This document shows, piece by piece, positions 21 through 47,536 of a DNA stretch of 47,536 bases (its first letter is position 1; each line of letters begins with the position of its first letter). Where the stretch lies: positions 1 to 47,536 of the forward strand of contig CAMKMK010000001.1 of NCBI GenBank assembly GCA_946413885.1, written 5' to 3'. The notes beneath the pieces were generated by a model. The model searched no databases. It had not been told where the DNA came from and saw nothing but the letters and a program-made list of their open reading frames with translations. The stretch comes from an uncultured Prevotellaceae bacterium. GTDB lineage: Bacteria; Bacteroidota; Bacteroidia; Bacteroidales; Bacteroidaceae. Both the position numbers and the translations under genes were made by a program.

Positions 21-79
21 CACTCAGAGTTTTCCGATGACTCAGAGTACTCGGAGTACTCAGATTACTCAGATTACTA
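21..79. repeat. 9-bp tandem repeat array: GACTCAGAG, TACTCGGAG, TACTCAGAT, TACTCAGAT, TACTAGGA (39-79). An isolated CACTCAGAG lies at 21-29 and one opposite-type unit TTTTCCGAT at 30-38.
   Basis: Read directly. There are 4.5 consecutive units with exact 9-nt period. The reverse-complement unit type (TCCGAGTTT) forms a second array at 27092-27127. Confidence 0.85.
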
Positions 80-172
80 GGAAGAACACGTTGACTTCGA
101 GGTTTCAACGTGTTGACTTTGCTGGAAGAACGTGTTGTCTTTCCTCTTTCAACACGTTGAAAAGTCGCGAAG
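80..172. repeat. 22-bp phased repeat array, 4 units, core AAC(GT/AC)GTT, mixed orientation
   Basis: Cores start at 85 (AACACGTT), 107 (AACGTGTT), 129 (AACGTGTT) and 151 (AACACGTT), with exact 22-nt spacing. Opposite-oriented neighbours form two 9-10 bp stems: 85-94 with 105-114, and 129-137 with 150-158. Confidence 0.9.
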
Positions 173-633: not shown

Positions 634-809
634 CGAGTGCCATGAGTGCCACGAGTGCCATAACGATTTTGAATGTGTGCCACAACATAGTGACTCAAAT
701 TCTATATTATCTATTATAATAATAAAATTATTATAATAGATAATATAAAGGTAAATATCCCTCTTCCTTGGCACTTTTCATTTTAGCAATGGCACTCGTG
801 GCACTCAGC
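634..809. repeat. Long palindromic element. Arms of tandem 9-mers (GAGTGCCAY) contain a perfect 19-bp inverted repeat and flank a perfect 21-bp-stem AT-only hairpin.
   Basis: TGAGTGCCACGAGTGCCAT at 643-661 is the exact reverse complement of 789-807. TATATTATCTATTATAATAAT at 703-723 is the exact reverse complement of 727-747, with loop AAA. Both symmetry centres fall at position 725. Confidence 0.9.
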
Positions 810-6969: not shown

Positions 6970-7171
6970 ATACTGTAATAAAAAGAATAGTTACATTTTA
7001 GCGCTGCAAAATTACATAAAAATTTGCTAAAAGGTATCAGTTTTCAAAAATAAAATTGTACTTTTGACATCGAAATGAGAAGACGTTGAATTTTAAATTA
7101 TCAAATAGAGCGAAATTAAAGCGCTGAAATATATACTCCGAACCATAGCAATAGTCCTTGCAGGACTGTAT

Positions 7172-17992: not shown

Positions 17993-18016
17993 TTGCAGAA
18001 CCAGAAACGCCAAGCC

Positions 18017-20272
18017 ATGCATAGCATTCCTGCATATCGACGTACAATTATCTGTCTGACATTCTTGTTTGGACTCAGCTACTGGGTTTATGGTCAGGAT
18101 ATCCTGCGAAGTCAAGACAGATCTGGTTACGACGAATACAACGAGCCAGGAAATTACAGGGATGATGCGGGCAACAGCTTGTCATGGGGAGGACGTGACA
18201 CGACGAGTCACAAGGATGGAAAGCCCATTCCCATTGGCATCTTTCAATGGGTCATCGATCCCAGGCTGGGCACGGTTATACCTGCAGAGAACAATGATAC
18301 GGTAGTTCACAATTACCAGAACAACAACCTGACGGAAGGCTATACAGGGCAATACAATTTCTTAGGCAATCTGGCAGCACCTCGCCTCAACCGCATCTTC
18401 ATGAATCGCGAACGGGTTTCTGATCAGATCTTCCTGGAACCCTATAGTTTCTTTCGTGGCTCGCTTAGCGATTTCCGTTTCACTAACACCCTTAGCCCTG
18501 TCACCAACCTTGCCTACAACAAATGTGGCAACAACCAGAATGGCGAGGATCGTATCCGTGCCTACTTCGCAAGCAATATCAACAAGATATCTGGCATAGG
18601 GTTCAAGCTCGATTATTCGTATGGACGAGGCTACTATAATGCATCAGCCAACAGCCTTTTTGGCGGAACCGTCTTTGGTTATTATCGAGGCGAGAAGTAC
18701 AGCATGCATGCCTACATCAATGCCAACCACATAAAGACGGGCGAGAATGGAGGTATCGAGAATGACCTCTACATTGTGGACCCACAGAGCTTCCAGACAA
18801 GTTATGGAAGCAAAGACATACCTACCAACCTCAGCGACACGTGGAATCGCAACAACGAACAGAACTTCTACCTAACTCACAACTACAGCGTGGGCATCAC
18901 TCGCGAGATTGAGATTCCTGATTCCCTGAAACCTAAGCCTCCCTCTGAAGCAGAACTGCTGAGCCAACTTAACGACAGCATACGTAATATATTACGTGAG
19001 GACAGCATACGTCGACAGGTAACTGTTGATTCCTTGATGCTTGCCTGGCAGAATTCCCTCGTTATCCCCAAGGAATTCCTACCTGTCACAAGTTTCATCC
19101 ATACGCTCGACATCCGCCGCATGCAGCACACCCATATTGCCAAAAATACACCAAACAGCTGGTACACAAATCATTACTACGGCGCTTGGAACAAGGTGGA
19201 TGACGAGACTGATGCAATGAGTGTACGCAACACTCTGGGTCTCTCCATACGAGAAGGATTCAGCAAATGGGCAGCGATGGGCCTCACAGCATACGCCTCA
19301 CACAAACTCAGGACGTACACCTTGCCAATCCTCCTTGCCGATAGTGTAGGCAGAAACAAATGGACTGAGAATGACATCTCGATTGGAGGCGAGGTGAGCC
19401 GTACCCAGGGACGTGTTATCCACTACAACGCGAATGCTGAGTTCTGGCTTGTGGGAGAGAATCTGGGAGACTTCAATGTGGATGGAACCATTTCGACAAA
19501 CATTCGCACAGGTGAGGCTGACAGCTTGCTCATATCCGCTCATGCCAACCTGCGACACGAGACTCCCTCTTTCTATTTCCGCCACTTCCATTCCCAATCT
19601 GCCTGGTGGGACAATACCAATCTAGACAAGGAACTTCACACACGCATCGAAGGGCAGATAGACGTCAGCAAGTCACACACGAGGCTGAATGTGGGATTTG
19701 AAAACCTGCAAAACTACACCTTCTTTGGAATGAGGAACACCCTGCTCAATGGGAAGGATTCAACGAGTGTCATACCAGCTGATTACAGCCACGAGGTTGC
19801 CGTCATGCAGCACGGCGGAAGCATCCAGATTTTTAGCGCGACACTTAGCCAGGACTTGCATCTGGGACCCGTTCATTGGGACAATGAGGTTACCTACCAG
19901 AAGACATCCAACAAAGATGTCCTGCCTCTGCCTGACGTCTCGATATACAGCAATCTTTACCTGCTTTTCCACATTGCCAAGATACTGCGCGTACAGCTGG
20001 GTGGTGACGTGAGGTATTGGACGTCCTATTATGCTCCTGACTATTCAGCAAACATAGGGCAGTTCGCCGTTCAGGACGCATCCCTTCAGCGTGTCAAGGT
20101 TGGAAACTACCCCATCATTAATGTCTATCTGAACATGCACCTGAAGCGATGTCGCATCTATCTGTCGATGAATCACGTGAACGCAGGTTCAGGGCGATAC
20201 TTCTGGGCGCCTCACTATCCAGTAAACCCACGCAACTTCCATTTTGGCGTAAGCTGGAACTTTTTCAACTAA
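18017..20272 (+). CDS. Putative outer-membrane porin / large beta-barrel protein
   Basis: The start is taken at ATG 18017 (MHSIPAYRR...). It has signal-like LTFLFGLSYWVYGQ, an alternating beta-strand pattern throughout, and a C-terminal aromatic signature FHFGVSWNFFN. Confidence 0.7.
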   Translation: MHSIPAYRRTIICLTFLFGLSYWVYGQDILRSQDRSGYDEYNEPGNYRDDAGNSLSWGGRDTTSHKDGKPIPIGIFQWVIDPRLGTVIPAENNDTVVHNYQNNNLTEGYTGQYNFLGNLAAPRLNRIFMNRERVSDQIFLEPYSFFRGSLSDFRFTNTLSPVTNLAYNKCGNNQNGEDRIRAYFASNINKISGIGFKLDYSYGRGYYNASANSLFGGTVFGYYRGEKYSMHAYINANHIKTGENGGIENDLYIVDPQSFQTSYGSKDIPTNLSDTWNRNNEQNFYLTHNYSVGITREIEIPDSLKPKPPSEAELLSQLNDSIRNILREDSIRRQVTVDSLMLAWQNSLVIPKEFLPVTSFIHTLDIRRMQHTHIAKNTPNSWYTNHYYGAWNKVDDETDAMSVRNTLGLSIREGFSKWAAMGLTAYASHKLRTYTLPILLADSVGRNKWTENDISIGGEVSRTQGRVIHYNANAEFWLVGENLGDFNVDGTISTNIRTGEADSLLISAHANLRHETPSFYFRHFHSQSAWWDNTNLDKELHTRIEGQIDVSKSHTRLNVGFENLQNYTFFGMRNTLLNGKDSTSVIPADYSHEVAVMQHGGSIQIFSATLSQDLHLGPVHWDNEVTYQKTSNKDVLPLPDVSIYSNLYLLFHIAKILRVQLGGDVRYWTSYYAPDYSANIGQFAVQDASLQRVKVGNYPIINVYLNMHLKRCRIYLSMNHVNAGSGRYFWAPHYPVNPRNFHFGVSWNFFN

Positions 20273-20288
20273 TTTAATGAGAGAAAAA

Positions 20289-20424
20289 AGACAACGTGTT
20301 GAGTTGGCAGGAAGAACGTGTTGTCTTTGCAAAGTTAACGTGTTGAGTTGGCAGGAAGAACGTGTTGTCTTTGCGGTTTCAACGTGTTGAAATTCTCAAG
20401 TCAACGTGTTGTCTGATTCAAGGG
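20289..20424. repeat. 22-bp phased repeat array, 6 direct units, core AACGTGTTG
   Basis: Cores start at 20293, 20315, 20337, 20359, 20381 and 20403, with exact 22-nt spacing and all in the same orientation. 38 nt at 20293-20330 are repeated identically at 20337-20374. Confidence 0.95.
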
Positions 20425-21289
20425 CTTGAAGTCGCTTCTGCTCATTCTCAGTAATGCTTCCCCAGAGCAGACAGGAAGCGTGGCTCCAAGCGAACTCAGC
20501 AATCAGCAGGAGGATGGTGCAGACGGCAAAGGCAAATGCTGTAAGCAACCAATAATGAGAGGGCAGGCTTACCATATCGCCCATCGCGATGGATTCAGCA
20601 GCTTCGAGATTGACCAAAGCGATTACCATCATGGGCAAAAGAGCTACAAGCGATACGAGCACCATCAGGATGAATCCCACGAGGTCGAAGGCCAGGATGC
20701 GGCCAAAATAACGCCATCCCTTGACGTATCCCACAAAGCATTGAGCGATGCTCTTGTCGCTGAATCTTATTTCCATGACGACCATTTCGACAGGCACGAA
20801 CAACAGCACGAGAACCAGCAAAACTACAGCCAAAGCCCAGACAGGGAGCTGGAAGATGGCCAAGCCGTAACCCGCCACAAAGAAAAGAAGAAACAGAAGA
20901 AGCATCAGGATCAACAGGCTGCAATCCCTTCTAAAACGCTGGGTGATAAGTGGTCGCAAGGTTTTCATCGTGACTACTGGCTCGTAATCCAAGTCCCGCC
21001 AACGTACCAGCATAGCATCCATCGAAGCGACGTAGAAGAGGCCTCCAAACAGACTGAGAAAGCAGACGACGAGTGAGGCGATCACCATCGACGTTTTAGC
21101 CTCTGATGCCAGTTGCTGAGTGAGCAGACCTGTCAAAGCTGAAAGGACAGCGCAGACGACAAGGGCCGGCCAGATGTAATGAAGGAGGTTGCCAGAGTTG
21201 TTCCAAGCCTGACGGATACCCTCCGTGATGCAACGCACATAGTTACGTTCTTCGCAAACTTTCACCAATTTTTCTGTCTTCGATTCCAT
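20396..21289 (-). CDS. Polytopic membrane protein, unknown function
   Basis: 297 aa with at least 6 predicted hydrophobic helices. The last codons (SDNTLT-stop) are encoded by repeat units of the 22-bp array. Confidence 0.6.
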   Translation of the reverse strand: MESKTEKLVKVCEERNYVRCITEGIRQAWNNSGNLLHYIWPALVVCAVLSALTGLLTQQLASEAKTSMVIASLVVCFLSLFGGLFYVASMDAMLVRWRDLDYEPVVTMKTLRPLITQRFRRDCSLLILMLLLFLLFFVAGYGLAIFQLPVWALAVVLLVLVLLFVPVEMVVMEIRFSDKSIAQCFVGYVKGWRYFGRILAFDLVGFILMVLVSLVALLPMMVIALVNLEAAESIAMGDMVSLPSHYWLLTAFAFAVCTILLLIAEFAWSHASCLLWGSITENEQKRLQALESDNTLT

Positions 21290-21376
21290 CTTTATGATTC
21301 GTTTTCCTCAAATTCGAATACAAATATACGGAATAAAAGCGTATCTTTGCATCGAAACATCTATTTTTTTATCATT

Positions 21377-22366
21377 ATGGATAGCGAGCAAGACATAAAA
21401 TGGGGATTCATAGGTTGCGGAGAGGTTACTGAGAAGAAAAGCGGACCTGCCTTCAGCAAAATTGCTGGGTCGTCAGTAGTGGCTGTCATGAGTCGAAACC
21501 AGGAGAAGGTGGAATCCTACGCACGCAGGCATAACATTCCTCGATGGTACACGGATGCCCAGCAACTGATCGACGACACGGAGGTTAATGCGGTCTATAT
21601 TGCCACTCCACCTTCCTCTCATGCTACCTACGCCATCATGGCCATGAAGGCAGGCAAGCCAGTTTACGTTGAGAAGCCCTTGGCAAGCAGTTATCTGGAT
21701 TGCCAGCGCATCAACCACATCAGCGAGCAAACACGCGTTCCCTGCTTCGTTGCCTATTACCGCCGCTATCTTCCCTATTTCCTGAAGGTGAAAGAACTGG
21801 TCAGACAGAATGCCATAGGGAATGTGATCAGCGTACAGATCAGGTTTGCTGTTCCGCCACGAGATTTGGACTACAACAGCACGAACCTCCCTTGGCGCGT
21901 GCAACGAGACATTGCTGGAGGTGGTTATTTCTATGATCTGGCTCCCCACCAGCTTGACTTCCTTCAGGAGCTACTTGGGCCGATTGTGCGAGCTTATGGA
22001 TACACGGCCAACATGGGAGGGCTTTACCAGACGGAGGATAGCGTGAGTGCTGCCTTCCAATTTGCTTCAGGCTTGCCAGGAAGCGGCTCGTGGAGTTTCG
22101 TCAGTCATGAAAGTGCTCGTACTGACCGCATTGAACTGATAGGCGACCGCGGGCAGATTTGCTTCAGCGTATTCACCTACGACCCCATCGCATTACATAC
22201 CAGCGAAGGACGCCAGGAAATCAGGATTGAGAATCCACCTCACGTACAACTTCCTCTCATCCAGAAGGTTGTGGAACATCTTCAAGGGAAGAGCATCTGC
22301 ACGGCTGATTGTGTGTCAGCCACGAGCGTGAACTGGGTGATGGACAGAATCTTAGGAAAGATTTAG
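21377..22366 (+). CDS. Gfo/Idh/MocA-family NAD(P)-dependent oxidoreductase
   Basis: The start is taken at ATG 21377 (MDSEQDIKWGFIGCGEV, a Rossmann GxGxxG motif). The track extension from 21179 overlaps the divergent gene. EKP motif (VYVEKPLA). Confidence 0.88.
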   Translation: MDSEQDIKWGFIGCGEVTEKKSGPAFSKIAGSSVVAVMSRNQEKVESYARRHNIPRWYTDAQQLIDDTEVNAVYIATPPSSHATYAIMAMKAGKPVYVEKPLASSYLDCQRINHISEQTRVPCFVAYYRRYLPYFLKVKELVRQNAIGNVISVQIRFAVPPRDLDYNSTNLPWRVQRDIAGGGYFYDLAPHQLDFLQELLGPIVRAYGYTANMGGLYQTEDSVSAAFQFASGLPGSGSWSFVSHESARTDRIELIGDRGQICFSVFTYDPIALHTSEGRQEIRIENPPHVQLPLIQKVVEHLQGKSICTADCVSATSVNWVMDRILGKI

Positions 22367-22410
22367 GCAACACGTTCTTACCTATCCCTTTTCATCTTGC
22401 TGGAAAAAAG

Positions 22411-22446
22411 AAATCCTGAGCTCTCAGAAATGAGAACCCAGGATTT
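22411..22446. terminator. Putative bidirectional terminator hairpin between convergent genes
   Basis: AAATCCTG (22411-22418) pairs with CAGGATTT (22439-22446). An inner TCTCA/TGAGA stem is present and the structure is flanked by A/T runs. Confidence 0.5.
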
Positions 22447-22479
22447 TACATTTAGCGATTGCTTAAAGGGGGGAAAACT

Positions 22480-25400
22480 TTACTTCACCAGTTGCTTCTT
22501 GCCGTTGATGATGTAGAGACCCTTCTTCAGCTGCTGACGGTTGGCAAACTTCCTACCTGTCAGGTCGTAGATACCAATTGCCTTGGTGTTGGGCACGCTA
22601 CTGATGATGTCAGAGATGCCAGTACCGCCGTTCTTGATATCCTCCATCTGCTCTTCGCTTACCATACGGAAATGACGAACATAAAGGGTGGTCAGTTCAT
22701 CAGGAATGGGATCGAGACGTATCCTGTCACCAGCCTTACCCCAATCGATTTCCAAAGCATCCGTCATGTCGATGAAGATGTTTTTCCACTCGCCAGGTTC
22801 TGTTGCCTCAAAGTCGAACCAGATCTCGTTGCCAGCCACGATGGGAGAGTAGAATACCTCAGCATTGTGGGCGGTCTCAGTCTGATACTGGAAATAGAGA
22901 TAACGTTCGTTGGTCAGGTCGTACTCCAAGGGAGTGAGGTAAGCGTATGGATCAGGCCCAACGGTGGTGATGAAGTAGCTGAAAGGTGCAACATTTGTCC
23001 ACTCCATATTGTGGGCACCTGAAGCCGTCAGCGTCATGTAGCTGGCATAGGTTGCCTTGACCTGAGCTGCCAAAGCGATTGCCTCCTCTGTAGAGATCTC
23101 AGGATAGTCAGGATCTTCATCATAAGCACCCCATACGCGCTCGCTAATTTCGTTGATGGCATCCTTGTCAGCACCCTCGTATTCAGCAATGTTGTACTCG
23201 CCATAAATAGCCTCTACAACATCCAACAGGTTGACGTATGCCTGCTTACCTTCGTAGATTTGCTGGAAGAGGTTACCTATCTGCTGAACCAAAGCGTACT
23301 TCTCTGCCCCTGTAGAGGCGTTGGGGATGGCATTCACAGCATTCTCCAAAGCTACCTTCAAGGAGAGAGGATAGTTGGGGAACTGCTTGTAGGTCTCGTC
23401 GTCCATATAAATGTACACATTGAGCAGATGATCTGCCGTAATGGACATCTCGTTCAAGGTACGGTCGAGAGCCTCGATAGCGGTAGCGGATTCCACATCG
23501 CCCTGATAGTAGAGACGGAAGTCGCCCAGACGTGTCACGTTGGCTCCATCGACACCAGGAGTGCGTACGCCCACGGTCAGGTTACCGTCAGTCACATTCA
23601 CCACGATGCGGTTCTCATACAACCCGTCAGAGAATGCCAAAGCATGTCCCTGGACAAGTGCAGGAGCGTAACCCACGTCGCTTCCATCCTCAAAGAGGAT
23701 CGTGAAGTTTGTCTCGTCGGCATACTCAGCATCCATAGGCACGTAATCCTCGATGATAGTACGCGTGTAGGTCTGAGCCTCGTTGGCATAGACGAAGGAA
23801 GCATAGTTCAGCGAGTTGTTGTCGCCAAAGGGTCGATAGTTAGCCTTGACGGTCAGCTCATAGATACCGTCCTTCATGCCTGTCAGCGTCTGGGAGAGAT
23901 CAACGGCATTGGTCGAACCAGCTATGTTCTTCAGTTCTGAAGCAGGCGTGTCATAGGTGCTGAAGCTGCCAGCATTCGTGTCCCAACCTTCCTTGGCTAG
24001 GCTGAAGTCTGGATTGACGAGCAGACTGGTGATCTCGCTTCCAGGAGTATAGTCTGAAGCGATGGCCTGAGTCAGCAAGCCGTCCAGATAGGTGGTCTCT
24101 TCCTGAATCTCCTCAGTCGTCAGCTGACGGTTCTTGTCGATGTAGGAATATGATCCGTTGGGGAACTTGCCGCCTGGCTCCTCGTCTTCTGTCAAGTAAG
24201 ATTCTACCACCTCGCGACCAGTACCAGCCATATCAGGATTTGCCTCCAGATAAGCCTTTACTTCCTCTACCTTATTCATATAGGCAGCGTAAGCGTCCAT
24301 GCTGGCTTGTGCGACAGCCTTCTTGGCGTAGAGTGCTTCGTAGGCATCGAGGAAGTCAGCCAGGACATTTATCTCGCTCAACGCATTGACATCTGCCTCG
24401 TAATCCTCTTGCAGGGCGGAAGTATAGGGATACTCGCTGCTCCAGTCCAACTCAGCCAGTACCACATCGTCGCGGAAGCTGGTGAAGTTCTCCTCAGTCA
24501 TGGAGGCATAGCTGCCATCAGGGAGCTGATATACGCGAGCGTGCGTCTTATCCCACGTGGGGCAAGTGTCTTCGCCGATATTCTGATACCAGGTGGGGCT
24601 GAGGAAGGTGTTTCCGTTCAGCGTGTAGCAAAGCTCACCACTTGCAGCTATCTCAGAGCAGTCTGCAAAGCAATTGTTCATGGCTGAGGCACCAGCCGCC
24701 AAAGGACCCTCGTACGTTGACCAGCAGTTGTTTAGCGTAGAAGAAGCTGCCTCACCGCTGATACCGCCTATCTGCTCATGTGTGGTAGCCAGAAGGAGGT
24801 CGCCTGCCGTGAAGCAGTTCGTAACGGTGGATACATGCATCTCACCACCCAGCACACCCGTGCGGACGCTTGCATTGCTGACCATCTCAGCATTCACGAT
24901 ACCCAGGTTCTTTACCGTTGCGCTATAGGTGCGGCTAAAGAAACCTACCTCTCTCGTGTCATCGCGCGTCACCTTCAGGTTGTAGATGATGTGGTTCTGA
25001 CCATCGAACACACCAGAGAAAGAGGTGTTGACCATACCTGCCTCGTCAGAGTAGAGGCCGATGGGAGTAAAGTTCTCGACAGGAGTCAAGTCGATATCAT
25101 TATCCAGCTTGGCCTTGACGGAAGTAGAACCTCCGTTGACCATCTCAGCGAACTTCAAGAGTTGCGTGTACCACTGGATGTGATAGTATCCATCAGCATC
25201 CGTCGTCATGAAGCCAGGCATCTCCTGACCGCAATTCACGCAGATACCGTATTCATATACGTGATCAGGAATCACAACCTCATTGGGAGTGTTCGAGTAA
25301 GTGATCTCGCCACCTTCCTTGGCAGAGCCGTCGCAGTTGAACTCACCTTGGGCATAGACTCTTCCGCGAGAGGAATCCAAAGTGGGCAGATTGTCCTCAC

Positions 25401-26682
25401 CAATTGTCTGGAACCATACAATCTCCTTCTGGTCGCCGTTCAGACGGAAGGTTGCCTCGCCACTACGGAAAGCATCGACGGGCAGATCGCTGTAGCAATC
25501 AATCATGTAGGAGGCGTAGGTACCTGTAACAGCACCCTCAGATACGCAATATTCCTCTGTACCAATGCGAACTTTATTGTCGTCAGCAGCATCGCCTATC
25601 AGTCTTCCAGCACGTGGATAAGCCTGAATGTCGTTGCCACACTCCCAGCAGCGGCTTACCGTACCGCCGTAGTTTCCAGCCACCAGGGCAGCCACGATCT
25701 CGTTCGTGTGGATCACGGTACTGTTCGTCACGTAGCAGTTTTCCACGCGGCCCTCCATCAGCTGACCAACCAGGGCAGCAAAGCGTCCGCCGTAAGGCTC
25801 TTTCTCACCAAAGTCAAACGTGTAGTAGTCCACACCCAGGTCGCGAACCGTACCCGTAACCAAGCCGAACACACCGCTTGACCCGTAGAGGGGATTGTAG
25901 GGAGCCGTCAGGTACTTGATGACGTGCTTCTGACCCTCGAAGATACCGGCAAAGCCCAGATTCGACTTGGCAGCACCCGTTGAATAGGAGTCACCATTGT
26001 CTATCACGCCGATGGGGCAATAGTCCGTCACCTCGCTCATGTCCAGGTCAGCCGTCAGACGTGCATTGGCAGTACGGTACATGCCTGAGTTCACGATACG
26101 CGCGAATTCCTGCAGGTCAGCAGGCGTACTGATGATCCAGTAGCCATCCTCGCCCTGCGTCAGGTGAATCTCGCCCACATCCGTCGTATGGCGTTTCTCG
26201 TACTCAGCCTGAGAGATGATCTCAATGTTGCGAACATCAATCTCCAAGCCTGCCTGCTCGCCCGTGTCCATACGCATGTTGTCGTTCTTCTTACCCCAAC
26301 CAAATTTCTGGCGACTGCCGGAAATGTTCACATACTTCACCGTCCAATCCTCAGCCATGGGGAAAGCAAATACCTGCTCACGACCTGCCGCAATGGGAGA
26401 GAAGAAGAACTCTGCATTGCCAATCGTCTGAGGGCATTTGTACTCCATCGTCACCCAAATCTCATCGTCAGTCAGGTCACGAGGCAAACGGCTCATCTGG
26501 ATGTAGGGGTCGCCGTTCAGGCTCACGATGTGGTACTCGTAGTCACCTGTTTGCTCGATGCTCATGCCGTTCTGAGTGGAACGGTTCAAGGTCAGGTAAC
26601 CCAGAGGCTCTGGCCCATCGTCTTGGCCAAAGGCACATACAGCCATTAAAGCTGTCAACAGAAAAAGTAGTTTTCTTTTCAT
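22480..26682 (-). CDS. 1400-aa secreted surface protein with a T9SS C-terminal sorting domain; internal duplicated modules
   Basis: Signal peptide MKRKLLFLLTALMAVCAFGQ. The C-terminus ...GIYDLTGRKFANRQQLKKGLYIINGKKQLVK is typical of Por/T9SS tails. It has two GLUG-like modules (FAGIFEGQKHVI..., FSGVFDGQNHII...) and homologous domains at the N- and C-ends. Confidence 0.85.
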   Translation of the reverse strand: MKRKLLFLLTALMAVCAFGQDDGPEPLGYLTLNRSTQNGMSIEQTGDYEYHIVSLNGDPYIQMSRLPRDLTDDEIWVTMEYKCPQTIGNAEFFFSPIAAGREQVFAFPMAEDWTVKYVNISGSRQKFGWGKKNDNMRMDTGEQAGLEIDVRNIEIISQAEYEKRHTTDVGEIHLTQGEDGYWIISTPADLQEFARIVNSGMYRTANARLTADLDMSEVTDYCPIGVIDNGDSYSTGAAKSNLGFAGIFEGQKHVIKYLTAPYNPLYGSSGVFGLVTGTVRDLGVDYYTFDFGEKEPYGGRFAALVGQLMEGRVENCYVTNSTVIHTNEIVAALVAGNYGGTVSRCWECGNDIQAYPRAGRLIGDAADDNKVRIGTEEYCVSEGAVTGTYASYMIDCYSDLPVDAFRSGEATFRLNGDQKEIVWFQTIGEDNLPTLDSSRGRVYAQGEFNCDGSAKEGGEITYSNTPNEVVIPDHVYEYGICVNCGQEMPGFMTTDADGYYHIQWYTQLLKFAEMVNGGSTSVKAKLDNDIDLTPVENFTPIGLYSDEAGMVNTSFSGVFDGQNHIIYNLKVTRDDTREVGFFSRTYSATVKNLGIVNAEMVSNASVRTGVLGGEMHVSTVTNCFTAGDLLLATTHEQIGGISGEAASSTLNNCWSTYEGPLAAGASAMNNCFADCSEIAASGELCYTLNGNTFLSPTWYQNIGEDTCPTWDKTHARVYQLPDGSYASMTEENFTSFRDDVVLAELDWSSEYPYTSALQEDYEADVNALSEINVLADFLDAYEALYAKKAVAQASMDAYAAYMNKVEEVKAYLEANPDMAGTGREVVESYLTEDEEPGGKFPNGSYSYIDKNRQLTTEEIQEETTYLDGLLTQAIASDYTPGSEITSLLVNPDFSLAKEGWDTNAGSFSTYDTPASELKNIAGSTNAVDLSQTLTGMKDGIYELTVKANYRPFGDNNSLNYASFVYANEAQTYTRTIIEDYVPMDAEYADETNFTILFEDGSDVGYAPALVQGHALAFSDGLYENRIVVNVTDGNLTVGVRTPGVDGANVTRLGDFRLYYQGDVESATAIEALDRTLNEMSITADHLLNVYIYMDDETYKQFPNYPLSLKVALENAVNAIPNASTGAEKYALVQQIGNLFQQIYEGKQAYVNLLDVVEAIYGEYNIAEYEGADKDAINEISERVWGAYDEDPDYPEISTEEAIALAAQVKATYASYMTLTASGAHNMEWTNVAPFSYFITTVGPDPYAYLTPLEYDLTNERYLYFQYQTETAHNAEVFYSPIVAGNEIWFDFEATEPGEWKNIFIDMTDALEIDWGKAGDRIRLDPIPDELTTLYVRHFRMVSEEQMEDIKNGGTGISDIISSVPNTKAIGIYDLTGRKFANRQQLKKGLYIINGKKQLVK

Positions 26683-26752
26683 GCGATTTCAGTTTTTATT
26701 GTTAATCAATATCAGTTATTTTACACTCGTTCAAAACTCTCATTTTCTACCA

Positions 26753-26784
26753 CAAAGATACAACAAAAATCCGAGACTACCAAA
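26753..26784 (-). promoter_or_regulatory. Putative Bacteroidota sigma-A promoter for the 1400-aa surface protein gene
   Basis: On the minus strand TTTG (26781-26784) is followed by a 20-nt spacer and then TATCTTTG (26753-26760). It lies about 70 nt upstream of the ATG at 26682. Confidence 0.5.
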
Positions 26785-26828
26785 CGTTTCTGCTTTTTTT
26801 TCTAATAAGGTGCGGAAAAAAGAAAAAC

Positions 26829-27053
26829 GTCCCACTGTCCCACTGTCCCATCGTCCCATTAAGGCGTTTTCAATATGCAGAGGGGTATGCTACCTATAGG
26901 TTATTATAGTATATAATAGATTATATACTATAATAAAATTCTAATACTTACATTATGCAACTTTTAATAGGGTTTTCGGGGTGTATTGTAAGCAACGGAA
27001 AGTGAGAAGGTGCTTAATGGGACAGTGGGACGATGGGACAAATGGGACAAACG
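26829..27053. repeat. Long imperfect palindromic element: arms of tandem 8-9-mers (GTCCCAYY / RRTGGGAC) flanking an AT-only hairpin
   Basis: Left arm GTCCCACTGTCCCACTGTCCCATCGTCCCATTAAG (26829-26863) faces right arm CTTAATGGGACAGTGGGACGATGGGACAAATGGGAC (27013-27048). The inner 11 bp are a perfect inverted repeat. The hairpin pairs TTATTATAGTATATAAT (26901-26917) with 26920-26936. Confidence 0.88.
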
Positions 27054-27091
27054 CCCTTTTTTCACTCCCCGCAAACACTTAGATTGATAAA

Positions 27092-27127
27092 TCCGAGTAT
27101 TCCGAGTTTTCCGAGTTTTCCGAACCA
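27092..27127. repeat. 9-bp tandem repeat array: TCCGAGTAT, TCCGAGTTT, TCCGAGTTT, TCCGAACCA
   Basis: Read directly. The unit is the reverse complement of the ACTCGGA-type units at 39-79. The 11-mer GAGTTTTCCGA is shared with 27-37. Confidence 0.85.
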
Positions 27128-27133
27128 TGCCCC

Positions 27134-27229
27134 CAAACCGAAAAGACAACACGTTCTTCTTGCAAACACAACACGTTCTTCCTGCAAAGACAACACGTTC
27201 TTCCTTCGCTCTCGACACGTTGAAACCCG
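27134..27229. repeat. 22-bp phased repeat array, 4 units in reverse orientation (core AACACGTT)
   Basis: Cores start at 27148, 27170, 27192 and 27214 (the last is GACACGTT), with exact 22-nt spacing. The reverse-complement units read AACGTGTTGTCTTTGCAGGAAG, matching the units at 20315 and 129. Confidence 0.93.
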
Positions 27230-27352
27230 AAAGAGCAACGGAAGGAAGAGGGAAACGAACGAATAAGTAGTTAGTAAACAAATCGTCCGCTTCTAATTTT
27301 TCAACAAGAAGTAGATAATAGTTTGTCTTTTAAGAATTAAGTAGATAACCGA

Positions 27353-27769
27353 TTACTTGACGATTTTGTGCGCTTCCTTTTCTTCTGCAATGCGCCGCTT
27401 CTCAGCCTCATCCTCGAGTTGTTGCTGCTTGACGGCCTGGTCGAGAAGGTCTTGGAAAGTGATGACGCGATCGTATTCGTCAAGAATCTTCATGTCGCGC
27501 TTGTGCTTGCGTTCGCGTTTGCGCTGCTTGATGGCAAAGGGATGGAGCATTTTGTCGTTGATACCTGGCGAAACCCTCTCTAAAACGTCGCCAAGCGTGG
27601 GTACGGAAGGCAGCTTCTGGCGGGCAAGGGAGGACTCGATGGCTTTCTCCAAGGGACTCCTCGTCTCGCCTGTGACAATAATCTGCCGCAAGGTATCAAT
27701 TTTCTCCCTCGATGTGGAATCAGGGATGGTGTCGTTCAGAAGAAAGAGTATGCTCAGCAGGAGTGTCAT
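27353..27769 (-). CDS. Hypothetical protein (N-terminal hydrophobic segment, Lys/Glu-rich C-terminus)
   Basis: 138 aa. Its ATG overlaps the upstream DUF1573 gene stop by 4 nt (ATGA), suggesting co-translation. I recognise no motif. Confidence 0.55.
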   Translation of the reverse strand: MTLLLSILFLLNDTIPDSTSREKIDTLRQIIVTGETRSPLEKAIESSLARQKLPSVPTLGDVLERVSPGINDKMLHPFAIKQRKRERKHKRDMKILDEYDRVITFQDLLDQAVKQQQLEDEAEKRRIAEEKEAHKIVK

Positions 27770-28203
27770 TCCATTGTACCTTCTATAACAAGACGAATGA
27801 CCTCAGTCACGGCGTTGCTGCGCACGGTCACGGTCTTCTGAAAATGTCCTGGGAATTTGTTTCGCCCGTTGTAGGTAACGTCGATCACGCCGCTCTCACC
27901 TGGCTTGATGGGGCTCTTGGTGTATGTGGGGATCGTGCAACCACAGCTGGCGAACGCCTGATGAATGACCAGGGGGGCTGTTCCAACGTTTGTGAACTTG
28001 AATGAGCAGTTGACAATGGGGTCTTCCTTGCTGAACTTGCCGAAGTCGTGACGCAGGGTGTCGAACTTGATCTCTGCGAAATTCTCAGCCTTCGTGGTTG
28101 CCTGAGCCTTCACCTCGCTGGTGGAGACCTTCTGGGGCTGAGTTTGGGCGTTGACACTTATGCAAGCAAAAAATGCGAGTGTCAGGAATATGATTTTCTT
28201 CAT
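27766..28203 (-). CDS. DUF1573-domain secreted protein
   Basis: 145 aa with a signal peptide. The pattern FDFGKF...F.F.N.G..PL.I......CGCT.P.....I.PGE.G.I is characteristic of DUF1573. Confidence 0.85.
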   Translation of the reverse strand: MKKIIFLTLAFFACISVNAQTQPQKVSTSEVKAQATTKAENFAEIKFDTLRHDFGKFSKEDPIVNCSFKFTNVGTAPLVIHQAFASCGCTIPTYTKSPIKPGESGVIDVTYNGRNKFPGHFQKTVTVRSNAVTEVIRLVIEGTME

Positions 28204-28404
28204 AGGACGTTTACACTTTACTGGTTTTCGAGGGCAAAGGTAAGGGAAAAGTTTTGAATTTGACTCTTAACGCAGATAAAAATATGTGAAAAATTGCTTA
28301 TTAGGGGGATTTTGACTAATTTTGCGCACGATTTTAAGAAAAAATAAGAAGGTGTCAGATAAAAGGATTGCAGGATTCGGCCTTTTCATGGAGGAAATCA
28401 TCGG

Positions 28405-28965
28405 ATGACAGAGAAAATCATCTTGGGAATTGACCCTGGAACGAACATCATGGGCTACGGCGTGCTGAAAGTGGCTGGTAAACAGGCGGAAATGCTCGCC
28501 CTGGGCGTGATTGACCTGAGGAAATATGCTGACCATTACCTGAAACTGGGGCATATCTTCGAGCGCGTGAGTGGCATCATCGAGGCGTATCTGCCTGACG
28601 AAATGGCCATCGAGGCTCCCTTCTTTGGCAAGAACGTGCAGAGCATGCTGAAACTGGGTCGTTCGCAAGGGGTGGCTATGGCTGCCGCCATCCATCACCA
28701 GGTACCTATTACAGAATATGCCCCCACGAAGATCAAGATGGCTATCACAGGCAACGGAAATGCCCACAAGGAGCAGGTTGCTGACATGCTGAGGCGCATG
28801 CTGAAGCTCTCGAGCGAGGAAATGGGTAAGTTCCTCGACGCAACGGATGCCCTAGGGGCTGCCTACTGCCATTACCTGCAGATGGGACGGCCTGAAACGG
28901 AAAAGAAATACTCGAGCTGGAAGGACTTCGCAAACAAGAACCAGGCAAGAGTGAAAGGAAAATAA
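28405..28965 (+). CDS. ruvC: Crossover junction endodeoxyribonuclease RuvC
   Basis: 186 aa. ILGIDPGTNIMGYGVL is the RuvC N-terminal catalytic Asp motif, with a later EAPFFGKN and ATDALGAA. Confidence 0.93.
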   Translation: MTEKIILGIDPGTNIMGYGVLKVAGKQAEMLALGVIDLRKYADHYLKLGHIFERVSGIIEAYLPDEMAIEAPFFGKNVQSMLKLGRSQGVAMAAAIHHQVPITEYAPTKIKMAITGNGNAHKEQVADMLRRMLKLSSEEMGKFLDATDALGAAYCHYLQMGRPETEKKYSSWKDFANKNQARVKGK

Positions 28966-43624: not shown

Positions 43625-44017
43625 ATGAAGAAAACACTCACATTAGCATTACTGGCAATATCAGGCGACATGCTCGCACAACAAGATATATACGTTTATC
43701 TATCCGACTTGTACACACCTGTACTTCAGGCAAACAGCGTACAGCGAATCGAGTTTGGAGAAACGGGTGTCCAAGTCATTACCACCACAGGCGAGACGCA
43801 ATCTGCCAGTTATGACTCATTCGACTATTTTCGTTTCTATCCCACCCCCACCCCGACAGGAGTTAAGATAGTAGCAGAGAAGGCTGCAAAGGAAAGTTCC
43901 ATCTATAGCCTGACTGGAGTGAAACAGAACCCAACAGGCAACATTCCCGCTGGGGTCTACATCAGGATAGAGAAGCTTGATGGACAAGAAAACGTAAAGA
44001 AAATCCTAAAGAGATGA
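43625..44017 (+). CDS. Small secreted protein: signal peptide, roughly 55-aa domain, PTPTPTG linker, T9SS-like C-terminal tail
   Basis: 130 aa. The tail SIYSLTGVKQNPTGNIPAGVYIRIEKLDGQENVKKILKR resembles Por secretion tails. Confidence 0.6.
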   Translation: MKKTLTLALLAISGDMLAQQDIYVYLSDLYTPVLQANSVQRIEFGETGVQVITTTGETQSASYDSFDYFRFYPTPTPTGVKIVAEKAAKESSIYSLTGVKQNPTGNIPAGVYIRIEKLDGQENVKKILKR

Positions 44018-44025
44018 TACGCACA

Positions 44026-47000
44026 ATGAAAAACTCATTTATATCAAAGGGCAGTCTGCTCCTAAAGGCTTTAGTATTATGTGGTGTCATTACCACAGCC
44101 CAGGCCGATGACAATCTCTATGTGTACAAGAATGGTGTCATCATGTTCCGCGAGAAAGCTGTCAAAGTGGATAGCGTCGCAATGGAGGAAGGCAAGAGCA
44201 TAGTCACCTTGTATGATGCAGCCAAGAAGGTTCTCTACACAGCCCCTCGCAGTCAAGTGGACAGCATATCCTTCACTACCGACGTTCCACAAGCCGACAT
44301 GTTGGATGTGCGCTTCAATGCTGACGGCACAGCAACCGACATATCTCCAATGCAGATGAAAGTCCAGAAAATAGGGAACACACAAACCGTCTATTACAAC
44401 GAAACATACAAGCGCTATGCCGCCAACTTCGTGAATCCCTGGGCTGGTAATGCATCCGGCTATTATAAAGTTGACTGGGAGAACAACACAAAATTCAAGA
44501 ACATGCTGGCAAACGGACACACGTTGGAGTGTATCATGATGGCCAATTACACACCACCTATTGCAAATGTTGAGGCAAAATGGTTCTCCAGTCATCAGGC
44601 AGGTGGCACAGGATTTCTCATCAGCACCATTAGTGGAAGCCGACAGAACGAGATAACTTTCCTGCCCAATGTGTCCACGAGCGGAAGCAGCACTTGGCGT
44701 TGGGCTACCAGTGGCGTGGTTCCTCAACCTGGCGTTTACTATCATTTGGTGGGTGTATGGAACAAGGCTCTAAAGAAGGCATATATCTACGTTAATGGAG
44801 AACTCAAGAATACTGTAGAGGCTTCTGGTAACTTCGTTCTTCCCCAGAGTGGAAGCGGATGGTTTGGTATTGGTTGCGATCCAAGTGGTTCCAATGGTAA
44901 TACAGCTTGGAATGGCGATGTCGTCATGGCTCGTATCTACGACTCTCCACTCAATGCTGAACAAGTCAGCAAACTGTGGAATCAAGTCCGCATTCTGGAA
45001 GAGAACGCTCCCAAACCTATGGTCAGCAATGTAACTCTCTCGAGCGGATATCCTGTAGCCCCTGGCACGAACTTCAAGATTGGAGCAACAGGGTTCCAAG
45101 AGGGTGACCAGATTGTGCTGCAACAAGTCAACTCGTCGTACAGCATCACCCTTCCTTTGGAGAAAGTGACTGAGACAGGTGGTACCATCATTATCCCTGA
45201 GGAACTTACCAGCGATCAATACAGCATCATCTTGAAGCGTGGCGACCAGACTCAACGGTTGGGCACTTGCACATTTATGGTAACCTCCAGCATGCCTCAT
45301 GGCATGAAGGTCATTGCACATCGCGGGTACTGGAACAAGGCTGGTGCCGCCCAGAACAGCCGCGCATCTCTGCAATATGCCTTCGATGTACAATGTTATG
45401 GTTCAGAGACAGACGTCTGGATCACACAGGACGGCCACGTGATGGCAAATCATGATGCAACCTTCAATGGCGTCAGTATCCAGAACTCAACCTATGAAAC
45501 TTGCAAGAACCTCACGCTCAGCAATGGCGAGAAGATGCCTGAGTTGAAAGACTTCCTGGAAATGCTCGTTAAGGAAGACTCCTGTAAGCTCATCATTGAG
45601 ATCAAGACTCACAGCGATGAAGCGCGTGGTAAGATTTGTTGTGACAGTTGCATTACTCAGGTTCATCGCATGGGACTTCAGGATAAGGTGGAGTACATCG
45701 CCTTCAGTCTCAACCTATGCCGAGAAATTGTCAGATTGGACCCCAATGCTCACGTAGCTTACCTGAATGGCGACAAAGACCCACAAACCCTTTACGATTA
45801 CGGCATCATGGGACTTGACTACACGGCCAACAACTATCGAAGAAATCCTTCATGGATTCCTAAAGCCAGAGAACTGGGCATGACAACCAACGTTTGGACC
45901 ATCGACAGCAAGGATGAGATGATTGAAATGTCAAATCTCGACATCGACTACATCACCACAAATAATCCTGAAACAGCCAAAGAGGTTTATGCTTATTACC
46001 AAGCTAATTCTCATCACGAAAATGGAGAAAATGATGAAGACAAGCCTATTGCCGACCTTTTGGATGTTTGTTTCAATTCCGACGGAACGGCAATTGACTT
46101 GTCTCCCATGAAAATGAAGATAGAAAAATGTGGAAACGCGCAAAATGTATATTACAATGAAATTTTCAAGTGCTATGCTGCCAACTTCACGACCCCTTGG
46201 TCTTCAAAACCTTCTGACTATTACAAGATTAATTTTGAGGACAACAAAGCTTTCCGCGATGCCTTGGCCGATGGTCACAGTTTGGAGGTTTTGGCGATGC
46301 CTGATTATGAAGGGAACCTTCCTGACGTGGAGGCCAAGCCATTTTCTGCAATGCAAGCCGGTGGCACAGGTTTCCTAATTAACAGATTGTCCAATGGCCC
46401 ACAAAATTCGTTTACTTTCCTGCCCAATGTCTCTACTACTGGTTCTAGTACATGGCGATGGACTACCAGTAACGTATTTCCCCAATCTGGTTTCTATTAC
46501 CATGTGATTGGCGTTTATAATAAGGAAGAGGCCAAGTCCTACATTTATGTAAATGGAGAACTCTGCAACACTGTGGATTCTCCTGGTGACTTCCGCTTTG
46601 CCAATGCTGGATGCAACTGGTTCTGTGTAGGCGGTGATGCAAGTGCCAACGGTGCAGAGGCAGGTTGGAGAGGCGATGTCATCATTGCCCGTGTCTATGA
46701 CAAGCCTCTCACAGAAGAAGAGGTAAAGAAATTATGGAAACCAGTCCGCATTCTGGAAGAGAACGCTCCCAAGCCTATGGTCAGCAATGTAACTCTCTCG
46801 AGTGGATATCCTGTAGCCCCTGGCACGAACTTCAAGATTGGAGCAACAGGGTTCCAAGAGGGTGACCAGATTGTGCTGCAACAAGTCAACTCGTCGAACA
46901 GCATCACCCTTCCTTTGGAGAATGTGACTGAGACAGGTGGCACCATCACCATCCCTGAGGAACTTACCAGCAATCAATATGTCATCATCCTGAAGCGTGG

Positions 47001-47536
47001 TGACCAGACTCAACGGTTGGGCACTTGCACGTTTATGGTAACCTCAAGCATGCCTCATGGCATGAAGGTCATTGCGCATCGCGGATACTGGAACAAGGCT
47101 GGTGCCGCCCAGAACAGCCGCGCGTCTCTGCAGTATGCCTTCGATGTACAATGCTATGGTTCAGAGACAGACGTCTGGATCACGCAGGACGGCCATGTGA
47201 TGGCAAATCATGATGCAACCTTCAATGGTGTCAGTATCCAGAACTCAACCTATGATACTTGCAAGAATCTCACGCTCAGCAATGGCGAGAAGATGCCTGA
47301 ATTGAAAGACTTCCTGGAAATGCTCGCTAAGGAAGACTCCTGCAAGCTCATCATTGAAATCAAGACTCATAGCGATGAGACGCGTGGTAAGATTTGCTGC
47401 GACAGTTGCGTTACTCAGGTTCATCGCATGGGACTTCAGGATAAGGTGGAATACATCGCCTTCAATCTCAACCTATGCCGCGAAATTGTCAGACTGGATC
47501 CTGATGCCCACGTTGCTTACCTGAATGGCGACAAAG
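44026..47536 (+). CDS. Partial (3'-truncated by the window edge) large secreted protein: signal peptide, small N-domain, then 2 x [LamG-like lectin, Ig-like, glycerophosphodiester phosphodiesterase]
   Basis: This ORF is not on the supplied track. Hand translation of the frame with positions = 1 mod 3 shows no stop from 44018 to 47536. Possible starts are ATG 44014 (ATGA overlap with the upstream stop) or ATG 44026 (MKNSFISKGSLLLKALVLCGVITTAQA). GDPD motifs are IAHRGYW...QNS...GSETDVWITQDGHVMANHD. The LamG pattern is YIYVNGEL...W.GDV..ARIYD..L. Confidence 0.88.
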   Translation, partial: MKNSFISKGSLLLKALVLCGVITTAQADDNLYVYKNGVIMFREKAVKVDSVAMEEGKSIVTLYDAAKKVLYTAPRSQVDSISFTTDVPQADMLDVRFNADGTATDISPMQMKVQKIGNTQTVYYNETYKRYAANFVNPWAGNASGYYKVDWENNTKFKNMLANGHTLECIMMANYTPPIANVEAKWFSSHQAGGTGFLISTISGSRQNEITFLPNVSTSGSSTWRWATSGVVPQPGVYYHLVGVWNKALKKAYIYVNGELKNTVEASGNFVLPQSGSGWFGIGCDPSGSNGNTAWNGDVVMARIYDSPLNAEQVSKLWNQVRILEENAPKPMVSNVTLSSGYPVAPGTNFKIGATGFQEGDQIVLQQVNSSYSITLPLEKVTETGGTIIIPEELTSDQYSIILKRGDQTQRLGTCTFMVTSSMPHGMKVIAHRGYWNKAGAAQNSRASLQYAFDVQCYGSETDVWITQDGHVMANHDATFNGVSIQNSTYETCKNLTLSNGEKMPELKDFLEMLVKEDSCKLIIEIKTHSDEARGKICCDSCITQVHRMGLQDKVEYIAFSLNLCREIVRLDPNAHVAYLNGDKDPQTLYDYGIMGLDYTANNYRRNPSWIPKARELGMTTNVWTIDSKDEMIEMSNLDIDYITTNNPETAKEVYAYYQANSHHENGENDEDKPIADLLDVCFNSDGTAIDLSPMKMKIEKCGNAQNVYYNEIFKCYAANFTTPWSSKPSDYYKINFEDNKAFRDALADGHSLEVLAMPDYEGNLPDVEAKPFSAMQAGGTGFLINRLSNGPQNSFTFLPNVSTTGSSTWRWTTSNVFPQSGFYYHVIGVYNKEEAKSYIYVNGELCNTVDSPGDFRFANAGCNWFCVGGDASANGAEAGWRGDVIIARVYDKPLTEEEVKKLWKPVRILEENAPKPMVSNVTLSSGYPVAPGTNFKIGATGFQEGDQIVLQQVNSSNSITLPLENVTETGGTITIPEELTSNQYVIILKRGDQTQRLGTCTFMVTSSMPHGMKVIAHRGYWNKAGAAQNSRASLQYAFDVQCYGSETDVWITQDGHVMANHDATFNGVSIQNSTYDTCKNLTLSNGEKMPELKDFLEMLAKEDSCKLIIEIKTHSDETRGKICCDSCVTQVHRMGLQDKVEYIAFNLNLCREIVRLDPDAHVAYLNGDK
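44986..45778 (+). repeat. Copy 1 of a 793-nt near-identical intragenic direct repeat (Ig-like plus N-terminal two-thirds of GDPD)
   Basis: It aligns without gaps to 46744-47536 at an offset of exactly 1758 nt (586 codons). I hand-counted about 43 mismatches, mostly at third codon positions. Confidence 0.9.
46744..47536 (+). repeat. Copy 2 of the 793-nt near-identical intragenic direct repeat (runs to the window edge)
   Basis: Same alignment as for 44986-45778. The similarity may continue beyond the window. Confidence 0.9.

Follow-up and report, generated by a model that had tools for sequence, protein, structure and literature searches.

A dispersed family of intergenic 22-bp-phased repeat arrays in rumen Bacteroidales chromosomes, possibly docking sites for a DNA-binding protein

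The repeat array considered here (positions 20292-20411, + strand) lies in a 47,536-nucleotide stretch of DNA, hereafter the window, from an uncultured Prevotellaceae bacterium (GenBank assembly GCA_946413885.1, contig CAMKMK010000001.1). It is one of dozens of members of an intergenic family dispersed chromosome-wide through genomes of rumen Bacteroidales. The family is of a known kind, the bacterial interspersed intergenic repeats, and its architecture is unlike that of each described family: a short, invariant and asymmetric core is repeated in rigid phase, with variable spacers, a modal size of four units and an apparent replication-linked polarity. On the evidence of sequence we favour, with about even confidence, the reading that each array is a DNA-level, head-to-tail phased docking array of ~90 bp for a putative DNA-binding protein, the role of which would be architectural or topological, or else linked to replication.

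The array consists of six head-to-tail units of 22 nt. Exact copies of the core AACGTGTTG start on the + strand at 20293, 20315, 20337, 20359, 20381 and 20403 and span 20293-20411, all intervals being 22 nt, just as an initial annotation of this DNA, made from the letters alone, had described. The spacers are, in order, AGTTGGCAGGAAG / TCTTTGCAAAGTT / AGTTGGCAGGAAG / TCTTTGCGGTTTC / AAATTCTCAAGTC. Two spacer types alternate over units 1-4, which is where the alternation of two unit types noted in that annotation is seen, and its perfect 38-nt duplication (20293-20330 is an exact repeat of 20337-20374) can be read directly in the sequence. Tandem Repeats Finder detects both a 22-nt and a 44-nt period, the latter with 88% matches. 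A comparison with shuffled sequence places the motif well above chance: exact cores number 15 in the window, where shuffles that preserve dinucleotides predict 0.31 (maximum three in any shuffle), and the relaxed two-unit phased pattern gives 23 matches against 0.06 expected. Three arrays hold 12 of the 15 cores, namely the main array and those at 85-159 (+) and 27147-27221 (-).

A scan of one genome per GTDB species with a three-unit pattern identified at least 89 chromosomal stretches. Nearly all listed matches fall in three rumen metagenome-assembled genomes (MAGs) named 'Bacteroidaceae bacterium' – RGIG2783 (goat), RGIG8159 (buffalo) and RGIG9746 (yak) – with single matches, among those listed, in one 'Bacteroides sp.', one 'Bacteroidales' and one 'Paludibacteraceae' MAG. 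The array-bearing contigs are chromosomal, reach 290 kb and carry housekeeping genes. Within the 8-kb blocks fetched, RGIG2783 carries at least 49 arrays and RGIG8159 at least 35. Across 18971-28034 the window is 80-83% identical in nucleotide sequence to these two genomes, and it therefore comes from a sister species. Core and 22-nt period are common to RGIG9746, E20 bin320, RUG12391 and the Paludibacteraceae MAG, and the spacer families differ. The analyses that follow are based on 96 arrays in 746 kb, from loci chosen for at least three exact units; all related genomes are MAGs, genes were called by a simple longest-ORF (open reading frame) heuristic, and terminator calls are crude.

Alignment of units from these arrays reveals a sharp division between core and spacer. 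Core-to-core intervals are 22 nt in 263 of 271 cases, and most others are 44 or 66 nt because a degenerate unit is skipped. In the unit logo positions 1-9 carry ~2 bits each, the preceding C 1.2 bits and the spacer positions 0.1-1.0 bit. Positions 1-9 are thus essentially invariant, and since the base before them is C in 85% of units the site is best written as the 10-mer CAACGTGTTG, i.e. (C)AACGTGTTG. The 12-nt spacer has the weak consensus W G T T T G C N R W T T, giving a full unit of (C)AACGTGTTG WGTTTGCNRWTT. The CAAC/GTTG arms of the site are palindromic; of the in-phase units, 364 have GT at the centre and 33 its exact inverse, AC, no other dinucleotide occurring more than six times, and the flanks beyond the core are not symmetric. 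Because the centre is fixed as GT or its exact inverse, the site is asymmetric, and a true asymmetry fits directional head-to-tail binding by a putative protein. The quasi-palindrome around an asymmetric GT in the initial annotation is thereby refined to 10 nt, with a centre that is itself conserved.

The units with an AC centre, 33 of ~410, are exact inverted copies in register and occur mostly at one array end. Array size peaks at four units (54 of 96 arrays), with 20 arrays of three, 16 of five and five with more (range 3-10), and A tends to predominate at the left end of an array, T at the right. Within the 746 kb, 348 of 368 cores lie inside arrays. The remaining solitary cores are not enriched (20, compared with 2-16 for control 9-mers), which rules out a dispersed single motif of the uptake-sequence type: arrays are the only form in which the motif exists.

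All arrays are intergenic, and all four gene-orientation contexts are represented. Convergent gaps are enriched, accounting for 27 of 82 arrays vs. 48 of 257 background intergenic regions at these loci; divergent gaps hold fewer arrays than the background would suggest, and the median distance is 72 nt to gene 3' ends vs. 189 nt to 5' ends. The main array of the window was initially placed between convergent genes, and indeed it fills the 123-nt gap between two stop codons: that of a putative porin (Pfam Porin_10; 17993-20272, +), 20 nt before the first core, and that of a 297-aa ORF (20396-21289, -) encoding a hydrophobic membrane protein for which no Pfam match was found. The last five codons of this ORF (DNTLT*) are encoded within the sixth repeat unit. 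Relative to the nearest gene 3' end, array orientation is random (24 sense, 25 antisense); no link was detected between orientation and local coding-strand balance, and runs of neighbouring arrays with the same orientation (22 vs. 12) are suggestive, not significant.

Orientation does follow GC skew. In 63 arrays vs. 30 the core lies on the G-rich strand (P=8e-4, with arrays masked and blocks pooled per contig), a share that rises to 79% where |skew| is at least 0.06. When the gene-strand component is removed by averaging skew over plus-strand and minus-strand genes, the count is 38 vs. 15 (P=0.002, with local MAG skew as proxy), and on contigs with three or more blocks 21 vs. 6. The G-rich strand is presumably the leading strand; with the core strand of 72-78% of arrays on it (P~0.002-0.006), the arrays appear, to judge from skew, polar relative to replication. 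One way of accounting for this is that the arrays are polarity landmarks of the Bacteroidales chromosome, where a protein with a part in replication, in the repair of forks or in segregation would load or pause, or along which it would translocate. They may then do the work of KOPS, Chi or Ter, each landmark being made up of about four phased 10-bp sites, an analogy that would account at once for a centre fixed as GT or AC, for the rigidity of the 22-bp period and for the shared orientation with the G-rich strand. Chi, KOPS and Ter share the bias to the G-rich, presumably leading, strand, and the bias of Chi in E. coli is similar in size. They differ in being single sites of 5-23 bp, mostly inside genes (Chi, KOPS) or present at ~10 per genome (Ter), and not intergenic phased arrays; we regard the landmark proposal as unlikely.

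The array following the porin gene has six units in the window and five in each of RGIG2783, RGIG8159 and a metagenome strain (a search for metagenome relatives of the flanking gene returned one locus). Cores are invariant in the orthologous five-unit arrays of L004, L027 and L093; spacers differ, only some being recognisably orthologous, and length changes in 22-nt steps. Ten between-species orthologous pairs repeat the pattern of cores and phase kept and spacers diverged. Presence or absence in orthologous intergenic regions, a check proposed with the initial annotation, gave an array in 19 of 19 informative intervals and none empty (0/19); in one interval that was not selected for an array, that of the window array at 27147, the L027 counterpart is degenerate (7085-7140). 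At 4-fold degenerate sites of the adjacent 1400-aa gene identity is only 62% and 54%. At least 50 core positions unchanged in several lineages, together with the lack of spacer indels, cannot against such divergence (54-62%) be neutral: judged by these alignments, cores and phase are under purifying constraint while spacers drift.

Arrays are at the same time subject to rapid internal change. In two strains with 98.6% identity over 6.3 kb, an orthologous array (L004 6581-6677 and L093 4879-4976) has diverged internally: one spacer has been replaced by its neighbour's copy, with five units kept, and the centre of the first unit is GT in one strain and AC in the other, with two flank changes. 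Unit conversion and centre inversion are therefore much faster than change in the surroundings.

The reading that we favour connects these features as follows. Each 22-bp unit would present one asymmetric 10-bp site, (C)AACGTGTTG, typically four of them head to tail, and with units two helical turns apart all sites would lie on the same face of the duplex. A sequence-specific protein would bind adjacent units cooperatively, in monomeric or asymmetric dimeric form, and the occupied array would form a nucleoprotein block of ~90 bp. Such blocks would be found near gene 3' ends, especially between convergent genes, and preferentially oriented with the direction of replication. The asymmetric site, a two-turn period free of indels, the head-to-tail arrangement of about four units, indifference to transcription direction and freely varying spacers together point to a cooperative, one-face binding array, with a putative architectural or topological role, as for enterobacterial repetitive extragenic palindromic (REP) sequences and bacterial interspersed mosaic elements (BIMEs), or one linked to replication. 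The structural part of the initial annotation – direct copies of a short quasi-palindromic site, phased on one face in an iteron-like build – is supported, and among the identities it listed, 'protein-binding array' and 'REP-like element' fit the data best.

Several points tell against this interpretation. No binding protein was identified, and clustering of 612 ORFs from the loci yielded no family shared beside arrays; the sole 'family' always near arrays consists of spurious ORFs reading through the repeats, and a gene family travelling with the arrays was accordingly discarded. The figures for size and conservation are biased by the choice of loci with at least three exact units, the taxonomic spread is drawn from the at least 89 stretches among the matches listed, and replication direction is read only by proxy, from GC skew over 8-56 kb of MAG sequence. 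The spacer consensus is lineage-specific and differs widely in other lineages. Finally, RNA from the + strand of the window array is predicted to fold at -46.5 kcal/mol (z=-3.3; - strand -24.8, z=-1.3), and in 29 of 92 cases at gene ends the array is followed by a terminator-like hairpin. The last two points concern RNA and are taken up below; the spacers raise the question of mobility.

Lineage-specific spacers point to a spread of arrays from common ancestors, which is also expected of a self-propagating element. The arrays would in that case be a non-autonomous minisatellite or REPIN-like repeat of no benefit to the host, the core of which is recognised by an enzyme (a RAYT-like HUH protein, a recombinase or a transposase); this dedicated enzyme would both start arrays at new sites and maintain existing ones. 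Dozens of copies per genome, the common descent within a genome that the spacer consensus implies, and one duplicated composite copy with ~100 nt of common flank (L050/L056) are in keeping with this, as are the rapid rearrangement of units and the GT-to-AC flip between strains described above. The bias to the G-rich strand is, moreover, that expected from single-strand transposition into the lagging-strand template, which in the case of IS200/IS605 gives such an orientation bias. The nearest published Bacteroidales analogue, BrickBuilt, is a MITE, or miniature inverted-repeat transposable element (PMC4596501).

The predictions of mobility fare less well when the surroundings of the arrays are considered. 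All-vs-all comparison of 300-nt flanks within each genome gave one related pair among 96 arrays, and otherwise no common leader, tail, inverted ends or target duplications, on which basis a MITE with shared ends was rejected. No transposase-like family recurs beside arrays, none of 19 orthologous sites is empty, cores are perfect at sites older than species splits, size is peaked tightly at four units and not broadly spread, and the viral and plasmid collections contain no array. Self-propagation, the main rival reading, is in our view somewhat doubtful, both as the origin of the arrays and as the means by which an enzyme seeds and preserves them. The suggestion of a 'decayed mobile element' in the initial annotation is not supported, there being neither shared flanks nor terminal inverted repeats, and orthologous cores being perfectly kept across species.

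The composite pair just mentioned has a structure of its own: L050 and L056 are two copies of one composite of 9-mers (TCNGAGT), three 22-mers and ~100 nt of common sequence.

A further possibility is that transcribed arrays act as RNA in 3' untranslated regions, where cores would pair with one another (with G.U pairs on the GT strand) to form nested stem-loops that stabilise mRNA or terminate transcription. REP stem-loops in E. coli are known to stabilise upstream mRNA or to terminate transcription. Consistent with such a role are the proximity of arrays to gene 3' ends, the predicted + strand fold, the A-rich left and T-rich right ends, and the absence of anything but the array from the gap between the porin gene and the 297-aa ORF; and given the 29 hairpins beyond arrays, many arrays may be transcribed. 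The fold on the + strand uses G.U pairs at the core centre and is possible only via the cores. Against an RNA role, orientation at the nearest gene end is random (24 vs. 25) and 19 arrays are antisense to both neighbouring genes. Covariation extending either possible helix (pairings within spacers or centred on cores) was null or negative in the spacers, and real arrays fold no better than arrays rebuilt from pooled spacers (z~0 to +0.2). Pairing of RNA needs no strict 22-nt phase, and Rfam contains no match. Canonical terminators with hairpin and T-tract are no rarer beside arrays (35%) than elsewhere (25%). One such terminator, that of the 1400-aa gene (22411-22446, -), has a 16-bp stem followed by CTTTTTT, and ordinary terminators are therefore in use in this genome. 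These orientation counts and terminator frequencies, with folding that derives from cores only, led us to discard the array as an intrinsic terminator or a substitute for one, and an RNA role in general seems quite improbable.

To return to the phased docking array, its build is, by analogy, closest to plasmid iterons and its genomic distribution closest to REP/BIME. Direct repeats phased at ~22 bp are the classic iteron layout (R6K gamma ori, pPS10, pSC101). The likeness to iterons (R6K, pPS10, pSC101, F, RK2) extends to 3-7 direct repeats at ~22-bp phase, an asymmetric monomer-type site and an occasional inverted edge copy; direct repeats of 17-22 bp at about two helical turns are the mark of iterons, and here 263 of 271 intervals are 22 nt, in arrays of 3-10 units. 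With three to six direct repeats, sometimes with an inverted end copy, an array might accordingly be an iteron set, or a centromere-like partition site (both likenesses drawn in the initial annotation), of an integrated or resident replicon. Iterons, however, occur once per replicon with a rep gene, an AT-rich unwinding element and DnaA boxes, whereas the arrays occur by the dozen in chromosomes among ordinary genes, neighbours including those for the porin, the membrane protein and an oxidoreductase. At least 49 arrays are found in one MAG, on contigs of up to 290 kb with housekeeping genes; no rep, par or mobility genes lie nearby; the same site between porin and membrane-protein genes holds an array in four genomes; and no match to the array was found among 72,556 PLSDB plasmids, nor to the three-unit or two-unit pattern among IMG/VR viral contigs. 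A plasmid-type function is on these grounds barely credible. The partition centromeres parS, parC and sopC were likewise set aside, since there are dozens of sites and no parA/parB-type operon beside them.

With REP sequences and BIMEs, including the gyrase- and IHF-binding (integration host factor) BIMEs of enterobacteria, the arrays have in common a high copy number and intergenic location at gene 3' ends and in convergent gaps. Both are also mosaic with other short repeat modules and kept at orthologous sites, and for both a protein-binding role at the DNA level has been proposed. REP units differ in being imperfect palindromes of 20-40 bp with a GTAG/CGTC tag, in alternating or inverted orientation, and linked to RAYTs. 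In the arrays only 10 bp are conserved, spacers are variable, the period is a rigid 22 bp and there is no stem covariation; only the CAAC..GTTG arms around the fixed GT are palindromic, no tag is present, and units run head to tail with 33 of ~410 inverted. Mycobacterial interspersed repetitive units (MIRU) and other variable-number tandem repeats (VNTR) of Mycobacterium tuberculosis are also interspersed tandem repeats at many intergenic loci with strain-variable copy number, but MIRU units are 40-100 bp, lie within operons, often overlap short ORFs and have no invariant core with variable spacers. A clustered regularly interspaced short palindromic repeat (CRISPR) array, in which repeats of ~24-48 nt separate unrelated spacers of ~26-72 nt behind a leader, usually with cas genes, was excluded: the core here is 10 nt, the 12-nt spacers have a common consensus and no shared leader was found.

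The nearest published case within the phylum is BrickBuilt, a 23-nt minisatellite MITE of Porphyromonas gingivalis with leader and tail segments, IS5-type inverted ends and up to 22.8 copies of the consensus AGAYCATARTATCCTCTCRTRTG (PMC4596501). It too is a Bacteroidales element of 22-23-nt tandem repeats, intergenic, at ~20 or more loci per genome, variable in copy number and disruptive of assemblies; it lacks a conserved-core/variable-spacer structure, and its consensus is unrelated to the (C)AACGTGTTG WGTTTGCNRWTT of the arrays (PMC4596501). No leader, tail or IS5-like inverted ends of the BrickBuilt type were found in the 300-nt flanks of the 96 arrays. The statement in the initial annotation that no described Bacteroidota element has this structure is therefore nearly right: BrickBuilt comes close but differs in sequence and in its leader, tail and ends (PMC4596501). 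A match in Rfam had been set beforehand as evidence against novelty; searched with Rfam 15, the window gave nothing at gathering score, and the best matches at permissive thresholds had E~5. Full-text literature searches with the core string, alone or with 'bacteroid', yielded nothing but primers and a mycobacterial operator that is unrelated, that of KstR (TnnAACnnGTTnnA); those on repeat elements gave BrickBuilt as the closest analogue.

To our knowledge interspersed intergenic repeats have received much study in Proteobacteria, Firmicutes and mycobacteria, and scarcely any description in Bacteroidales, the dominant members of gut and rumen communities. The signature of the arrays is clean – a 10-bp asymmetric core, a rigid two-turn period, and constraint amid DNA turnover – and makes binding directly testable. 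If the partner is a host protein, the arrays would represent a new layer of chromosome organisation or of replication-linked polarity in the phylum; if it is a dedicated enzyme, they would represent a new kind of persistent genomic passenger. The difference in unit arrangement between strains that are 98.6% identical means that arrays could serve as strain markers. In practical terms they break short-read assemblies, at which they act as breakpoints. Of two proteins looked up by exact sequence for strain-level polymorphism, one is not on record; for the other, the 297-aa product, all three Logan contigs shown (L090-L092) end ~35 nt past the stop codon of its gene, inside the array.

The two further arrays of the window, for which the initial annotation gave 80-172 and 27134-27229, are both real, with units mapped at 85-159 (+) and 27147-27221 (-). 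The first (84-159, +) has four in-phase units starting at 85 (AC), 107 (GT), 129 (GT) and 151 (AC), the terminal units being exact inverted copies of the core. The second (27147-27221, -) also has four, with exact cores at 27191-27199, 27169-27177 and 27147-27155 and a degenerate outermost unit (AACGTGTCG, 27213-27221); its complementarity to the main array is 84% across 88 nt. This inverted match between the arrays at 20292 and 27135 was considered as a pair of transposon ends and dismissed, as the layout is kept in other species and no transposase lies between. A solitary core (AAGAACGTGTTGCC) is found at 22368-22376 (-), just downstream of the terminator hairpin of the 1400-aa gene.

Tandem 9-mers of the TCNGAGTNN type (3-6 copies) directly adjoin 22-mer arrays in five cases, in variable orientation relative to them: 22-82 and 27092-27123 in the window, L050 4061-4112, L056 ~770-835 and L080 5651-5702. 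At 22-82 (+) ~6 copies of ACTCAGAGT abut the array at 85, and at 27092-27123 (+) 3.6 copies of TCCGAGTTT lie 19 nt from the array at 27147. A second repeat family consists of imperfect palindromes of ~180-290 nt, the outer stem of which is formed by inverted tandem 8/9-mers (2-4 copies) and the centre by a perfect AT-only hairpin (e.g. window 703-747). Copies were located at 26829-27050 and 635-806 in the window and at L027 6795-7075, L034 2610-2780, L012 7283-7410 and L004 1-96; folding as DNA gave z=-6.5, -9.4 and -9.1. The five AT-centred copies all (5/5) lie within ~650 nt of a 22-mer array, intact or degenerate. The copy upstream of the 1400-aa gene has GTCCCACT/AATGGGAC in the window and ACACAGTA/TGTTACTG at the orthologous L027 site, a compensatory-like swap on both arms.

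Among neighbouring genes, the 1400-aa protein (22480-26682, -) is secreted or lipoprotein-like, belongs to no Pfam family and is 85-87% identical in two sister species; two small ORFs near it (27353-27769 and 28267-28767, both -) also have no Pfam family. Towards the end of the window, an ORF with a signal-peptide-like start (~43981-47536, +) runs for at least 1185 codons and continues past the last position. It contains an internal 1758-nt tandem duplication (44596-45767 vs. 46354-47525, 77-89% identical), and the minus-strand ORFs opposite (44077-45393) are shadow ORFs with no Pfam match. Segments related to this ORF are present in L059 and L086.

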